A stretch of DNA of 64,000 nucleotides, from contig JBMOMC010000043.1 of NCBI GenBank assembly GCA_049325335.1, positions 66,202 to 130,201 of the forward strand, written 5' to 3'. Shown piece by piece: positions 18,001-27,000 of this stretch; positions within the stretch are counted from its first letter, which is position 1, and each line of letters starts with the position of its first letter. Made by a program: the position numbers. This DNA is from Nitrospirota bacterium (lineage in GTDB: Bacteria; Nitrospirota; Nitrospiria; 2-01-FULL-66-17).

Positions 18001-21000
18001 GTGGGCGGGGTGGTGTCGGGCGCGGCGGAGGTGGTGAAGACGAAATCCGAGGAGGACGCGTTGTTGCCGGCGGCGTCCACGCTGCGCACGCGGTAGTGGT
18101 ACACCGTGGATGCGGTCAGGCCGGTCAGCGTGATGCTATGGCTGGTCACGCGCACAGCGTCCGAGGATGTCGCGCTGTAGGCGGTGGTCAGGCCGTAGTC
18201 GACCACGGAGGTGGAGACTTCGTTGGTGCTCCAGGTGATCACACTGCTGGTTGCGCTTACGGTGCTGGCCGTGGTTCCGGAGATGACCGGCGGGGTGGTG
18301 TCGGGCGCGGCGGAGGTGGTGAAGGTGAAGTCGCCGGAGAGCGCGGCATTGCCCGCGGCGTCCGCGCTGCGCACGCGGTAATGATACAGGGTGGAGGCGG
18401 CAAGGCCGCTCACCGTCGCGCTGTGGCTGGTCACGAGCGTGGCGTTGAGCGTGGTGGAGGCGCCGTAGGCCGTGGTGGTGCCGTATTCGACCTGGGTGGT
18501 GGCGGCTTCGTTGGAGGTCCAGGTGATGCTGGCGCCGGTGCTGGTGATCGAGCCCGCGCTGATGCCGGTAAGCGTGGGCGGGGTGGTGTCGGGCGCGGCC
18601 GTTGTCGTGAACGTGTAGTCGGACGAGATGGCCACATTGCCGGTTGCGTCAAGACTGAGCACGCGGAAGTGGTACAGGGTGGACGGCGTTAAACCGCTCA
18701 GGGTTCGAGCGTGGGTGGTGACCAGGGTGGAGTCAATGGCCGTGGACGAACCGTAACCGGTCGTGGTCCCGTATTCCGCCGCGGTGGTGGCGGCTTCGTT
18801 GGTGGTCCACGTGAGCGTGGCCCCGGTGGCCGTGATGCCGGATGCGGTGACCGAGGAGATGGTGGGTGGCGTGGTATCGGTCACGATCTTCGTGCCTTCG
18901 TTCGAAGGGGTGCTGCTGTTTCCCACGAGGTCTTGCGCGGTCACGGCAAAGTAGTATGTCCCGGGGCCCAGTCCCGTCACCGTATAGGTGGTCACCATAC
19001 CCACCGGGATCACGGAGGAGTAAACTCCCGAGCTGGTACCGTAGTGGACGGTGTAACCGGCCAAGTCGGACTCGGTGTTGGGGTTCCATGACAATATGGC
19101 GTCCGCTCCAAACGCGGGCGCGGCGCACAGTAGGAGTGACGCGAGGGCCCAAGGGGCCGCGGAGACACACCGGTTGTTCGGCGTATTCGGCGTGTGATGA
19201 GCGTTTTGACAATGACGATACATGACACTGACCTCTTTTCGCATGCGGTGTACTCGTGTCCGGTGCGCCCAACCACGTCCCGGGCGCCTTGCTCAGGGCG
19301 TCTCTAAGAGCAAACCTGGTGCCAGCAACCGCGCACGTTGAAAACCGCTGTATTGACGGCGCGATTGCCGCGCGGGCGCGCGTGAATCATGGTGGTGCGG
19401 AAGCGGTTGCTTTGAATTGGCGGTCGAAATCCGTGATTCGGATTACCGTTCAGTCGTTCAGTTTGAGGCCGTGGGTGTTGACCGGGGGGATGGGGCGCGG
19501 TGCGTGCGCTGCCGGAATCTCACCGATGGCCGGTGGATTCCGCCAGGTTTCCAGCACGGGCCGCGTTGAACGTGTGGGGCGTCTTCCGCCGATAGCCTCT
19601 CGATTTTTTCGTCGTGACATGATATGGGCAGGGGTGATGCCGAGGTCGATTTCAGGGATCGGCGGATCGCCGCCGGGAGATCAAGACCGGACCACGGGCG
19701 CGGCCCATCGTCTTGCGGCGGCGCATATCGAGCCGCCGCCGATCACCGAGGCGCTGTCGGCTCACTGCGCGTGTATAGCCGCGAGTTTTCGTCGCTGGAT
19801 CGGTCGCGACCTCATTGACGCTCCGGTAGCCGATCACGACCTCGTAGCCAGGTTGTTCGACGCTCCATTTGCCCTACTCGCCCACGGAACCGAAGCGGAC
19901 CCGATGCTGACTTACGGAAACCGGATGGCGTTGACATTGTGGGAGACGACGTGGGATCGGTTTACCCGCATGCCGTCCCGGCTCACGGCCGAACCCCAGG
20001 CGCGTGATGAGCGGGCGCGCGTACTCGCGGGCGTCACCCGACGAGGGTACGTGGAGAACTATCGCGGGGTTCGCGTGTCGCAGACCGGGCGTCGGTTCCA
20101 CATCGAGCGCGCGGTGGTTTGGGTGCTGGTGGATCCGTCGGGTCGAGCGGTCGGACAAGCCGCCATGGTCGATACCTGGACCGACCTGGGTTAACCGTAC
20201 CGACGCATGGCGCGGTTGACCGTCAAAGTCGTTCCCAAATCATCTCGAAACCGTGTGGTCGGCCGGCTCGGTGATGCCGTGAAGGTGACGGTGACCGCTG
20301 CGCCCGAAGGCGGTCGAGCCAATGCCGCGGTGGCGGACCTGCTGGCCGCGTGCCTTGACGTGCCGGTCTCCGGCGTGCGGTGCGTTGCCGGGCACGCGTC
20401 CGCACGAAAACTCTTTGAGATCGCGGGACTCACCGAACGGCAAGTGAACGCGCGGCTCGATGCCTTGATCGCCGACTCCGAGCACGCTACGTCTGAGTAG
20501 CCGAGACCCGCGTACGACCGTCACGTGTCGTCTTCATCGTTCCTTAATTATCTCCCTGGTACACTCTGCGCGTGTTCGACGCCACCCGTATACCGGTGCG
20601 GTCAATGGTGCGCGGCGTCGTAGATGGGCCAAGAACTTGGCAACGTGGAGGTGCGGTTGACGGAATGTTGATACTCTAGTCCGCGGAAATTTTCGTACTC
20701 CGAGCCGCCAAACCTGTAATTTCCATAGGAGGCGGGGCATGAGTTCGGCTCCTATCAAGATTGGGGCTGGTACGCGAATTGCTTTCCTTACAGCCGGTGC
20801 TGTATCGACCAAACAGAATGAACAAGCAGTGATATCTAATACAATGTGAGGATCCGAAGAATGTCCAGAGAGCGACAGACGATTCATTGGGGCGCACAGA
20901 TCGGAGCCGTGGTTGTTGCTGGGTTCATGGCGTGGATCGGATGGGGGGCGCTGGTCGGGCACGCGGCTGCGCCGTCTCCATCGTTCGACCATGACCGGAC

Positions 21001-24000: not shown

Positions 24001-27000
24001 TATCCCGTGCGCGTGGACGGCGCCGAGCTCAAAATCACGATGTGACGGGGCTGGAACGAGCCGGGAATCATCACGGTCAGTGGGCCCGAAAGGAATAGCC
24101 TGAAGTGGATGCCGCAGTTTCTCAAACCGACGTTGCTCCGATCCGCCTGCAATGGATGCGGCCATCGTCCGCCGCGCTCACCGCGCTCAAGTACCTGGGG
24201 TTCACGCTCATCTGGGGCGTGGGCCCCGTGTATGTCATGGCGTTCGAACCGTATGAATCCGAATCCTGGTTCGGGTTGGTGCTCGGGATCGCGGGCCTCT
24301 CCTGCATGCTCGTGGGAGCGGTTATGTACGTGGTGCGTAAACATGTGGCCCGGTTCAAAAAAATCGGCAAACTGAACACGTGGTTGTCCGTCCACATCGC
24401 CTTGTGTTTGGCGGGGCCCACGTTCATCATGTACCATGCGACGTTTAATATTTTGGCGCCGAATTCCGGGGTCGCGATTTATAGCATGTTGATCGTGGTG
24501 GGCAGCGGCCTGTTCGGCAAGTACATCCACGGCCATGTCCTGCAGACCCTGGGCGGCGAACGGGCGGGCCTCAAGCAAATCGAGAAACAGCGAACGCTGA
24601 TCGACCTGGACGTTGCGGGTCAGAACGGCGTGCCGCAGAGCCTGCTGCAGAAGATCCAACAGTTCTTCGAAGTCCGGACCACGAGCAAACACGTCGGGGT
24701 GGTCAAGTCGTTCTACCTGTTGGGCAAACTGGATTGGCTCGAGCGCCGGATTCTCCGGCAGGCCTCGGAGGAGTTCAAGGCCGTACTGCTCGCGCGTCGC
24801 GAGCTGCGGCCGCAGCAGCGGGCGACGCTCGAAGTCGACGGGCTCCAGGGCCTGGCGATCAAAACCGGTTTTGAAAAACGCATTGCCTTAATGGAGGCGA
24901 CCGAACGTGCCTTTCGTTTCTGGCACCATTTGCACGTGCCGCTCTTGGTCGTCCTGGTGCTGACCGTGTTGGCCCACCTCACGGCGGTCCTGCTCTTCTA
25001 GCCGTGTGGGGTTGATCGCCCGGCGGGTGCTCCGCCGCCTTCCTGTCTTTCTGGTGGTGATCGCGCTCTGGCCCGCCGTGGCCTACGGCCTCAGCCTGTT
25101 CAAAGGCGTGATGCCGGGCAAGGTCGCCGAACCGCACGCCAAAACCGAGGAGGAGTGCTTTGATTGCCACGCCGCATTGGGCAAGTCCTTTATCGCCAAG
25201 TGCGTGGCCTGTCACAAGGAAGTCGGCGTGGACCGACAGAAGAAACGGGGGTTCCACGGCAAAACCGACACGGAACGATGCGAGCGCTGTCACGCGGAGC
25301 ACAAGGGGCGCGCGTTCCAGCTCATCACGTTCGACTCCAAAACTTTTGATCACACCAAGACCGAATACCGCTTAGAGGGTAAGCACCAGGATGTGCGGTG
25401 CGAGCAGTGCCACGTGAAGCCCAAATTCCGCGAAACCCCCTCCGCGTGCGTGGCCTGTCACCGCAAAGACGACTATCACAAGGGCACGCTCGGCGACGCC
25501 TGCCAGCAGTGTCACGTCCCGGCCTCGTGGAAGGAGATTCGTTTCGACCACGCCAAAACCAAATTTCCATTGGAGGGCAAACATCAGCCGGTCACGTGCG
25601 AGCAATGTCACGTGAAAGGGTTGGACGCGAAAGATACCCCGACCGACTGTGTGGCCTGTCACCGCAAAGACGACCCGCACAAGATGATCTTGGGCGAGCG
25701 GTGCGAGAGTTGCCACACGGCGGCGGATTGGAAACGGAGCACGTTTAATCACGACACGACCGACTACCCGCTGACGGGGAAACACCGGCCCGTCGAGTGC
25801 CTGGGCTGCCACAAAACGCCCAAACTCGCCGAAACCCCTCAATCCTGCTACGCGTGCCATAAGAAGGACGATCGGCACAAGGGCTCGCTGGGAACGCAGT
25901 GCGCGGACTGCCACACGCCCACGGACTGGAAGCAATTTCGCTTTGATCACTCCAAGACCAAGTATCCGCTGCTGGCCAAACACCAGGAGGTGGTGTGTGA
26001 GAAGTGCCACGCCAACGAGCGGTACAAGAACACGCCGATGGAGTGCGTGGCCTGCCATAAGAAAGACGACGAGCATAAGGGGTTGCTCGGTCCGCGCTGC
26101 GAGAATTGTCACGTGGAGCGGGGATGGAAACAGACCACGTTCGATCACGACAAGACCGATTTTCGTCTGCGCGACGCGCACGTGACGGTCAGATGCGACG
26201 CGTGCCACACCACGCCGAAGCTGAAGGAGACGCCGACGACCTGTCACGGCTGCCATCAGAAAGACGACGTGCACAAGACCAAACTGGGTGATCGCTGCGA
26301 GCAATGCCACGACGTCAAGACCTGGAAAAAGGCGCCGCGATTCGACCATCAGAAGACCGAGTTTCCGTTAAAAGGTAAACACGAACCCGTGCCGTGCAAG
26401 AAGTGTCACGCCACCAAGCTGTTCGCGGACGCGGCAAAGGTCTGCGTCGAGTGTCACAAGAAGGACGACGAACATAAGGGGCGGTTCGGAGCCCGATGTG
26501 AGCGCTGCCATACGGATCAAACCTGGGAGCGCAAGGACTTCGACCACAAAAAAGAAGCCGGGTACGCGCTGGACGGCGCGCACAAGAAGGTCAAGTGTCT
26601 GACGTGCCACACGCGTCCGCTGTTTAGCACCAAGACGTCGACGCTCTGCGGCGTTTGCCACCGTAACGACGATGCCCACGACGGCGCGCTCGGCCCTCGC
26701 TGCGAACGCTGCCACACCGTGGAGACGTTCGTCATCCGGCGATAACGTCCGAGATCATCCGATCGTCAGTCCCTCGCCCCCCTGACGGGACCATGTCCAT
26801 ACGCCACATCACGGGCCACCGCAGGTGATGGCAATAGTCGAAATTGGCAACCTCGTCTACACTATCCGCACAATTCTGTTGCGAAGAACATGTTCGGTGT
26901 CGGAGGCGTGCTGATGCGGCGATTCCCATTACAAATGGGGACGGTGACCGTGGAGGCGAGCGGTTGTGTCGATTTGTTTTACCCAGTCGGGAGATGACCG

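Follow-up and report, generated by a model that had tools for sequence, protein, structure and literature searches.

A PCC3-type operon with a dioxygenase-type Rieske ferredoxin in a Nitrospirota bacterium: a candidate outward electron conduit

Introduction

PCC3 is a described gene cluster with a candidate function, and since 2017 it has been listed among candidate iron oxidases (He et al., 2017, PMC5566968; Hoover et al., 2023, PMC10734462). Its four genes encode a barrel, a repeat-rich multihaem cytochrome (MHC) that is enriched in Thr/Ser/Ala/Gly and variable in haem number, a periplasmic MHC of about 21-27 haems (22-39 aa per haem), and an inner-membrane protein (IMP) of ~300 aa with five transmembrane (TM) helices, WX3HX13H on TM3 and TM5 and SGXXG on TM4. 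The cluster is common in Gallionellaceae and Leptothrix; examples are S. lithotrophicus ES-1 (Slit_0867-0870 and Slit_1446-1449), L. cholodnii SP-6 and Sideroxydans CL21, and the hosts named in the accessible parts of the published accounts are Alpha-, Beta- and Gammaproteobacteria. The published PCC3 model ends at quinone.

MtrCAB and MtoAB likewise combine a barrel with a multihaem wire. In the non-nitrifying Nitrospiria, a porin-dodecahaem complex, PCC_1, was described together with Cyc2 in Ca. Manganitrophus, where metal oxidation was proposed, and was reported only within Manganitrophaceae (Yu et al., 10.1101/2021.11.15.468770). Cyc2-like genes have also been reported in nitrifying Nitrospirales. 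In literature that took in a minority of subscription papers, we found Nitrospira and PCC3 named together only in He et al. (2017, PMC5566968), and no report of a Rieske variant of PCC3 or of a porin-cytochrome system with NADPH, a flavoprotein or a ferric reductase. The words 'porin' and 'cyc2' are absent from the main text of the Nitrospirota surveys that we consulted.

Here we analyzed an operon in a 64,000-nt stretch (the window) of contig JBMOMC010000043.1 of a Nitrospirota bacterium (GCA_049325335.1), which an earlier note had read as the core of a metal-oxidising lithotrophy.

Results

The five co-oriented genes of the operon were confirmed as the earlier note gave them, including the polytopic membrane protein and the 101-aa Rieske protein (Table 1). 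By gene anatomy and sequence motifs, we identify the operon as PCC3, because it has its own barrel, and both WX3HX13H motifs and SGXXG are present in its membrane protein. It shares with published PCC3 a density of 24-27 aa per haem. Further, copy 1 of Sideroxydans CL21 has the same 24 + 14 haems, and the L. cholodnii cluster has 24 haems and a barrel of 22 strands (24 haems and 21-22 strands here). Unlike the published clusters, that of the window belongs to the phylum Nitrospirota, includes a Rieske gene, and has a lipoprotein barrel that bears a single short TPR domain.

Table 1. Features of the operon and its surroundings (positions in the window).
Feature	Position	Strand	Remarks
Five-gene operon	20861-26745	+	all genes co-oriented
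Sigma-54-type promoter (predicted)	20768..20782	+	-24 GG / -12 TTGC, 95 nt 5' of first start codon
14-haem cytochrome c, 377 aa (PCC3 'extracellular' MHC)	20861..21994	+	14 CXXCH
Lipoprotein with TPR domain and outer-membrane beta-barrel, 561 aa (barrel modelled)	21994..23679	+	start overlaps upstream stop codon
Soluble Rieske [2Fe-2S] ferredoxin, 101 aa	23740..24045	+	PF00355, E 3.6e-18; export signal not seen
PCC3 inner-membrane protein (IMP), 298 aa	24105..25001	+	five predicted TM helices, 130-aa cytoplasmic helical domain
24-haem periplasmic cytochrome c, 579 aa	25006..26745	+	24 CXXCH
Membrane PAS-GAF-GGDEF-EAL protein gene	27007..30144	+	Pfam; downstream neighbour, membership in system not claimed

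The second gene product had been described as a TPR lipoprotein, and the operon as having no outer-membrane barrel. Its lipoprotein signal (VQGC, Cys22) and TPR domain are followed by a region, residues about 135-560, that models as a beta-barrel ending in the C-terminal Phe. The AlphaFold2 model (pLDDT 77) has 21 strands at 135-560, and a low-confidence stretch at 192-208 coincides with the expected place of a 22nd. When this model was searched with Foldseek, the top rows were exclusively outer-membrane barrels; VIA-align gave Z 17.2 for MOMP, 16.1 for FyuA over 356 residues and 14.0 for MtrB. On this modelling, the product is a TPR domain joined to a 21-22-strand outer-membrane barrel, and both statements had to be revised. 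A barrel homologue was present in all 20 Nitrospiria loci that we fetched, which were picked from the best IMP matches. The NCBI name of the protein, BamD, was rejected, as the match is limited to the first ~110 residues and lies below the cut-off.

The CXXCH counts (14 in 377 aa and 24 in 579 aa) agreed with those given earlier; 2000 residue shuffles yielded on average 0.16 and 0.31, and never more than 3 and 4, respectively. The accompanying statement that none has a Pfam cytochrome row was incorrect for both cytochromes, which exceed the cut-offs of PF14522, PF14537 and PF02085. The 24-haem protein is Lys-rich and consists of an N-terminal trihaem part and seven ~66-aa trihaem repeats (24.1 aa per haem, 25 further His, 3 Met). 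Its homologues in the 20 fetched loci have 24 haems in one ORF (14 loci) or over two ORFs (two), 27 haems (two) or 21 haems (one), and one is cut by a contig end. A PDB sequence search with this protein gave no match to solved chains. In the 14-haem protein, a signal peptide is followed by one module resembling the above repeat (35-55% identity to the seven repeats), T/S/A/G-rich two-haem repeats and a three-haem C-terminal part (17 further His, 3 Met, T+S+A+G 43%, Lys 1%); the haem number of its relatives varies from about 11 to 43. This protein had been called membrane-anchored, but its N-terminus, read by eye, is an apparently cleavable signal ending in AAA, in which no lipobox was seen, and a surface location is predicted after He et al. 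(2017, PMC5566968).

Other assignments were rejected. The DmsE/MtrA decahaem family (TIGR03508) scored 35.6 bits against a cut-off of 192.2 and MtrC 22.8 against 209.3, which sets the operon apart from MtrCAB and MtoAB; PCC4 has three periplasmic MHCs of 4, 5 and 10 haems without an extracellular MHC. PCC_1 of Ca. Manganitrophus, compared by description, differs in haem numbers and IMP.

The IMP shows the PCC3 pattern throughout, with WX3HX13H at 93 (TM3) and 273 (TM5) and SGXXG at 134 (TM4). The four His, which form the pairs His97/His111 and His277/His291, are invariant over 22 aligned relatives, and we infer that the protein binds two b-haems. Its model is helical (pLDDT 70; helices 23-47, 55-80, 90-112, from 119, and to 297), and the topology was set by the Lys/Arg-rich loop 2. 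Fold searches with this model returned generic helical bundles only and matched no solved haem-b protein. In the Atlas, the neighbours of the IMP (score 0.94-0.95) bear the name ferric reductase-like transmembrane protein. Its profile matches named proteins of Burkholderiales and other proteobacteria (E about 1e-66 to 1e-69), and the window protein lies on a long branch apart from proteobacterial IMPs; ES-1 and Leptothrix proteins were not among the results of cluster look-ups.

A full-length IMP was found in 45 other genomes; by hand count, 15 are in families without NxrA and 30 in family f3, in which 19 of the 30 have NxrA; genome G171 holds both PCC3 and NxrA and is a single contig. The two sets form separate clades, and the PCC3 of family f3 and the nitrite oxidisers is a second, Proteobacteria-like type. 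Thus, the claim that the operon is conserved across non-nitrifying Nitrospiria is too narrow for PCC3 as a whole and stands for the window's subtype, which comes from non-nitrifiers. Weak IMP matches (E > 1e-20; 64 of 109 genomes), mostly covering ~100 residues, were left out of the counts and probably represent the shorter related IMP family of Table 6 in He et al. (2017). In the window genome's own family (f1), the operon was not found in three of the six other genomes, among them a 98%-complete congener, and is therefore unlikely to be a core energy path.

The IMP of Nitrospiria is accompanied by a membrane-anchored 2[4Fe-4S]+FAD flavoprotein, which gives the same conduit a cytoplasmic, NAD(P)H-type inner end. 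Among 400 genomes, 37 have both proteins, 8 the IMP only, 7 the flavoprotein only and 348 neither; the flavoprotein is present in 37/45 genomes with a full-length IMP and in 7/355 without. It was detected at 34 of 80 metagenome IMP loci; of these 80, 26 have 2 kb or more of flanking sequence on either side, and the flavoprotein lies in 20 of them. The other six well-flanked loci, without a flavoprotein inside 8 kb, count against a strict partnership. Motif counts in the metagenome loci (WX3HX13H 79/80, SGXXG 80/80) were given no weight, since parts of both motifs are built into the scan patterns. Nine IMP genomes, including that of the window, have no flavoprotein, and in six of these the slot that separates the barrel gene from the IMP gene holds a different cytoplasmic carrier (Rieske in four, an FAD reductase in one and a Fer4_13 ferredoxin in one). 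The three with neither are 72-93% complete, with contig ends in two. The replacement is not strict, since genome G005 has a reductase in this slot and the flavoprotein elsewhere, and the independent lineages behind the pattern are few, the replacements coming from three families.

What is new here is that family f1, in which none of seven genomes has the flavoprotein, has instead a dioxygenase-type Rieske ferredoxin in the operon and a matching, rare reductase in the genome. The Rieske gene occupies the barrel-IMP slot in all four f1 operons (the window and three others) and in 0/17 other fetched loci, and among solved structures its product is closest to the ferredoxins of naphthalene and biphenyl dioxygenases. 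The reductase gene lies elsewhere in the window genome (contig C2, 432138-433520) and is related to toluene/biphenyl dioxygenase ferredoxin reductases. Both families are those of the Rieske dioxygenase chains BphA4-BphA3 and TodA-TodB; unlike in those chains, no oxygenase alpha subunit was found in the genome, and we propose a membrane cytochrome b as client. Neither a ring-hydroxylating oxygenase nor a P450 was identified as the usual client of the pair. At E<=1e-90, a cut-off of our own choice, the reductase occurs in 7 of 401 genomes, six of them with the operon: four Rieske-operon carriers and two with the gene inside the operon (44-46% identical to that of the window genome), the seventh being a 65%-complete f1 member. 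It was not found in two better-assembled f1 genomes without the operon. Against the pairing, the reductase gene is unlinked to the operon in family f1, and the reductase could instead serve a NirB-type nitrite reductase or two further Rieske proteins of the genome. Complex prediction for IMP and Rieske protein (score 0.01) was uninformative for or against docking.

In agreement with the earlier note, the genome has no NxrA-type match and no COX1, and its only oxygen reductase candidate is one bd-like subunit I. ATP citrate lyase, a bc-type complex and a bd-like oxidase cluster are present; SoxZ, a full-length NiFe hydrogenase large subunit and a NarG-type reductase were not found in the genome, and a NirK-like match was sub-threshold. 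Three proteins, rather than the two counted earlier, carry the motif of the earlier note, which we take to mark them as Cyc2-like. They have no match in Pfam, NCBIfam or the PDB, and relatives occur in three of five NxrA-bearing genomes tested; Cyc2-like genes are not diagnostic in Nitrospiria.

Of 17 homologous upstream regions, 13 have a GG-N10-GC site, which we take to be the sigma-54 consensus, 80-100 nt upstream (shuffles: mean 0.18, max 3); its constant spacing is better evidence than the count, because the pattern was drawn up once the regions had been inspected. No sigma-70 promoter was found within 20400-27100, and FNR and CRP consensus scans gave nothing consistent over the 17 regions. 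Further, c-di-GMP-I riboswitches lie upstream of the operon in four relatives among eight loci scanned, and these together with the sigma-54 sites point to conditional expression. Rex-like scores in upstream regions of family f3 were the product of another palindrome.

Discussion

We consider it moderately probable that the operon encodes a PCC3-type conduit linking the cytoplasm with the cell surface, most likely outward, fed by NAD(P)H through the reductase and the Rieske protein and acting as a conditional redox valve or surface reductase. The C2-encoded reductase would pass electrons from NAD(P)H (NADH, -320 mV) to the Rieske ferredoxin (dioxygenase ferredoxins, near -150 mV), which would dock on the IMP's cytoplasmic domain. 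In the IMP, two b-haems would move electrons through the inner membrane in a ferric reductase-like manner, the 24-haem protein would bridge the periplasm, and the 14-haem protein would provide the exit, within the barrel or past it, to an external acceptor, for example another cell, humics or Fe(III)/Mn oxides. This route would skip quinone, and outward flow would spend rather than build membrane potential, which makes a valve or surface reductase, in attached, oxygen-poor growth under sigma-54 control, likelier than a respiratory or lithotrophic core. A cytoplasmic Fe-S carrier in the flavoprotein's place suggests that electrons leave the cytoplasm rather than that metal electrons enter respiration. 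Against the outward conduit, export of NAD(P)H would be costly for an rTCA organism. More tentatively, and as a possibility somewhat short of probable, PCC3 in general may be a quinone-independent wire from NAD(P)H to the surface, in which family f1 swapped the fused flavoprotein for a reductase and Rieske pair and a third family recruited a single-cluster ferredoxin.

In the model of the earlier note and of He et al., electrons flow inward and support lithotrophy: Fe(II)/Mn(II) or a reduced mineral donates them, and quinone or the bd-like oxidase accepts them. The haem wire across the envelope is supported, more completely than the earlier note claimed, because the operon has its own barrel; PCC3 needs no Cyc2-type protein as its outer end. 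The ATP citrate lyase, bc-type complex, oxidase cluster and Cyc2-motif proteins would suit inward flow, and with NxrA, SoxZ and the hydrogenase subunit not found there is room for another donor. The frequency of PCC3 in Gallionellaceae and Leptothrix argues in the same direction, as does the IMP gene of one CL21 copy, which rose when cells could oxidise iron and also speaks against an outward conduit. We nevertheless regard inward flow as unlikely and a metal-oxidising lithotrophy as unsupported: the inner end is accompanied by NAD(P)H/Fe-S proteins of the cytoplasm, the near-complete congener has no detected operon, nitrite oxidisers hold a PCC3 type, Cyc2-like genes of Nitrospiria mark no particular metabolism, and in ES-1 both PCC3 clusters were lowered on Fe(II) (PMC8788666), which favours the outward conduit, and PCC3 was low in magnetite proteomes.

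Two further readings keep the outward direction or change its purpose. The IMP could be a quinol oxidase like CymA/CbcL that feeds metal or humic respiration, with the Rieske and flavoprotein genes regulatory or accessory. In known outward wires, His are the distal haem ligands, and most further His of the two cytochromes could act so; an anoxic acceptor route would be useful, given the NarG and NirK results. He et al. (2017, PMC5566968) compared the HX13H motifs to a quinone-active cytochrome b. Yet one gene slot is taken by three unrelated cytoplasmic carriers and the flavoprotein follows the IMP almost one to one, which makes a quinol-fed wire quite unlikely in our judgement. We also identified no quinone-site motif, although no search aimed at one was made. 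We find still less probable a non-energetic wire for reductive iron acquisition, detoxification of outside oxidants, redox sensing or electron storage in the 38 haems, even though the IMP is similar to the transmembrane domains of ferric reductases, PCC3 of ES-1 is higher when Fe(II) is not added (PMC8788666), and the GGDEF-EAL neighbour and riboswitches accord with it. About 40 iron atoms per complex would be a steep cost for iron scavenging, and the outward chemistry would be that of the NAD(P)H-fed conduit, with only the purpose differing. No Fur-like box above shuffle level was found in the 17 upstream regions with a proteobacterial consensus.

Should the inner end of PCC3 be NAD(P)H and not quinone, genomic surveys in which the cluster counts as a mark of iron oxidation would be misled, and Nitrospirota, including nitrite oxidisers, could reduce minerals, humics or electrodes straight from NAD(P)H; the f1 variant would be a natural swap experiment if the wire is quinone-independent. 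With PCC3 in NxrA-bearing genomes, a well-studied group of nitrifiers gains a possible extracellular electron route; the operon does not disclose the energy source of the present, non-nitrifying lineage. Both the reductase and the Rieske protein are small and soluble, so the inner-end question could be tested at low cost, with an in vitro handle on the first step.

A plasmid search gave a single weak match. The PAS-GAF-GGDEF-EAL gene follows the operon after a gap of 261 nt, and one congener has a similar gene 3' of its operon.

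Identification of the operon as a PCC3

The operon consists of the five genes described in the earlier note, and the haem counts given there were confirmed: the smaller cytochrome (377 aa) has 14 CXXCH motifs and the larger (579 aa) has 24 (maxima after residue shuffling, 3 and 4). The two cytochromes had been reported to have no Pfam cytochrome row, yet both matched Pfam cytochrome c7/c3 models above the cut-off. They possess approximately one spare His per haem each and only three Met, which is consistent with bis-His haems. Further, the 14-haem protein begins with a module resembling the repeats of the 24-haem protein, which may be the contact point between the two.

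The main caveat of the earlier note was that the operon encodes no barrel. Gene 2 possesses a lipobox at Cys22 and a short TPR domain, and no Pfam match was found over three quarters of its length. An AlphaFold2 model (23 relatives, pLDDT 77) contained 21 strands between residues 135 and 560, and a low-confidence stretch where strand 22 is expected. The Foldseek and VIA-align matches to this model were outer-membrane barrels; alignments to TonB-dependent receptors covered 345-369 residues. The caveat therefore falls, because gene 2 is modelled as an outer-membrane barrel.

In the part of He et al. (2017; PMC5566968) consulted here, PCC3, a type of porin-cytochrome c cluster, comprises a barrel, two cytochromes, one of which is periplasmic with approximately 21 haems and the other T/S/A/G-rich with repeats, and a membrane protein (IMP) of approximately 300 aa that carries SGXXG and two WX3HX13H motifs. 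The operon shows all of these features and is a PCC3 by match to this description. In L. cholodnii, PCC3 is described with 22 strands and 24 haems (PMC5566968), compared with 24 haems, 21 modelled strands and an expected 22nd here, and the haem numbers of copy 1 in Sideroxydans CL21 (24 + 14; preprint 10.1101/2025.02.27.639646) are equal to ours. Hoover (2023; PMC10734462), as far as consulted, lists haem numbers of 21/24/27 and 10-35 and already proposes a periplasm-spanning wire. The IMP profile reached named proteobacterial proteins at E ~1e-68. PCC3 itself is in print. Its occurrence in Nitrospirota and the reductase-plus-Rieske variant described below appear to be new; our literature searches found no prior report, including term searches of PMC10203281, PMC11033732 and PMC12342949, and the parts of PMC13386937 and PMC7399161 consulted gave nothing further on this.

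A Rieske ferredoxin in place of the flavoprotein

In metagenome loci of many lineages, the IMP gene lies near that of an N-terminally anchored flavoprotein of approximately 435 aa that contains a 4Fe-4S dicluster and a pyridine nucleotide-disulfide oxidoreductase domain. It was present in 34 of 80 metagenome IMP loci, and in 20 of the 26 whose flanks reach 2 kb in each direction. Within the class, 37 genomes possessed both proteins, 8 only IMP, 7 only the flavoprotein and 348 neither (related genomes are not independent). The parts of the published PCC3 descriptions consulted made no mention of this partner.

The window adds an exception to this pattern. None of the seven genomes of f1, the window's own family, yielded the flavoprotein, and a Rieske ferredoxin gene sits between the barrel and IMP genes in all four f1 operons. 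Two genomes of family f6 have an FAD reductase gene in this slot, and one of family f12 has a Fer4_13 ferredoxin gene there. A dioxygenase-type ferredoxin reductase on another contig of the window genome (the C2 reductase) is 44-46% identical to the f6 slot reductase. At E <= 1e-90 the C2 reductase was detected in 7 of 401 genomes, namely the four carriers of the Rieske operon, both of these f6 genomes and an f1 genome that is 65% complete; none was found at this threshold in the two operon-less f1 genomes (93-98% complete). This reductase and the operon's Rieske ferredoxin belong to families of dioxygenase electron chains, and searches of the window genome detected neither a ring-hydroxylating oxygenase nor a P450. 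Against their pairing, the reductase gene is unlinked to the operon in f1, one f6 genome has both the slot reductase and the flavoprotein, and the window genome encodes other Rieske proteins.

Distribution in Nitrospiria

Full-length IMP (E <= 1e-20, a cut of our choosing) was found in 45 of 400 other genomes of the class: 15 among 74 genomes of families without an NxrA match, and 30 among 228 genomes of f3, presumably Nitrospiraceae. The NxrA query, which scores 1577 bits against the solved subunit A of nitrite oxidoreductase, detected this nitrifier marker in 19 of the 30 IMP-bearing f3 genomes (hand count). All four PCC3 genes were present in 20/20 fetched loci, some split or cut. In a tree of 37 IMP rows, non-nitrifier sequences clustered together (90/81) and f3 sequences clustered with proteobacterial ones (100/99). 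A single clade of all Nitrospiria rows was rejected (p-AU 0.0008; 26 rows, quick tree, group chosen after the first tree). Because there are two separate groupings, the window's subtype belongs to non-nitrifiers, as the earlier note had it for the operon, but PCC3 as such does not. Within f1, PCC3 was found in 4/7 genomes, and the IMP search did not detect it in a 98%-complete congener.

Direction of electron flow and candidate electron donors

The loop charges of IMP put one His pair near each membrane face and a predicted helical domain of 130 residues in the cytoplasm. Ferric reductases have such an arrangement of His pairs across the membrane, and the Atlas neighbours of IMP bear the ferric reductase name. 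In the simplest chain, electrons would pass from NAD(P)H through the reductase, the Rieske protein, two b-haems, the 24-haem protein and the barrel to the 14-haem protein. By redox potential this chain would be downhill outward. The membrane potential would also favour outward flow, and the reverse transfer, from Fe(II) or Mn(II) inward to NAD(P)+, would be steeply uphill. Since no energy would be conserved by electrons running outward, we read the operon as a surface reductase or a valve used conditionally, which we consider somewhat more probable than not.

The alternative, that the operon serves metal-oxidising lithotrophy, is disfavoured by published expression, as far as these sources were consulted: both PCC3 clusters of Sideroxydans ES-1 are down on Fe(II) (Zhou 2022; PMC8788666), and PCC3 cytochrome levels are low on magnetite (Keffer; PMC11429942). 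In CL21, one IMP gene rises with iron-oxidising ability (preprint 10.1101/2025.02.27.639646), which counts against the outward valve. The operon is a poor answer to the question of the electron donor. The window genome encodes ATP citrate lyase. Labels that come partly from reading sequences also give a probable bd-like oxidase cluster, a probable bc-type complex and probable genes for assimilatory-type reductases of nitrate and nitrite. Searches of the genome detected neither COX1 nor SoxZ, no full-length large subunit of a NiFe hydrogenase and, in agreement with the reported lack of nitrite oxidoreductase, no NxrA. Three monohaem proteins, not two, carry a Cyc2-like N-terminal motif; none had a library match. 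Relatives with this motif occurred in 3/5 NxrA genomes tested, and Cyc2 has been reported in nitrifiers (Yu et al., preprint, consulted in part).

A more promising candidate for electron uptake is a Uet-like cluster, which fits the Uet description in the part of PMC10734462 consulted. Its 670-aa protein, without annotation and ending in Phe, is a putative barrel, found in 4/5 f1 genomes tested, one of them the congener in which PCC3 was not detected; the cluster is more widely kept in f1 than PCC3. In the Hyf-like complex, the PF00374 match is limited to the first ~67 positions.

Regulation and neighbouring genes

A sigma-54-type site lies 80-100 nt upstream in 13/17 regions, c-di-GMP-I riboswitches precede the operon in four relatives and a GGDEF-EAL gene adjoins it; these candidate signals fit a use that is regulated and linked to the surface. 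Upstream of the operon and its relatives, no Fur-like box was found. Between the outer cytochrome and IMP genes, 8/9 f3 regions contained 1-3 copies of the palindrome TGGGA-N6-TCCC(A), with divergent sigma-54-type sites, and 8 non-f3 regions contained none. The palindrome is a putative regulator site of PCC3 in nitrifiers.

Genes similar to the fibronectin type III gene beside the operon occupy the same position in loci L001 and L002. Outer cytochromes with 43, 45 and 47 CXXCH motifs were found in L165:8631-12134 (G222, another Nitrospiria genome) and in metagenome loci L084 and L108, and several genomes have two outer cytochrome genes in tandem.

Features of the window, the window genome (G000; C, contig) and fetched loci (L)
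Feature	Location	Strand	Details
PCC3 operon	window 20861-26745	+	genes 1/2 overlap by 1 base; remaining gaps 60, 59, 4 nt
Secreted fibronectin type III repeat protein	window 16956-19244	-	762 aa; C-terminal membrane anchor; upstream of operon, divergent
Monohaem proteins with Cyc2-like N-terminal motif	G000 C1:122666-124057, C6:94998-96434, C7:119785-121197
Uet-like cluster	G000 C1:236388-247788 (L066:6389-17789)		5-haem, NHL, 4-haem, PPIase, 670-aa protein, NHL, 11-haem
Two tandem secreted proteins	G000 C43:350783-357935		1124-1166 aa; 5 widely spaced CXXCH each; after two-component system
Hyf-like membrane complex	G000 C11:65220-71989		putatively group 4 hydrogenase-like
c-di-GMP-I riboswitches	L037:12860-12948, L037:14623-14711, L039:12576-12671, L040:4238-4324, L156:4523-4618		directly 5' of outer cytochrome genes; families f2 and f12
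Palindrome regions	L046, L048, L049, L052, L162-L164, L166		f3; intergenic
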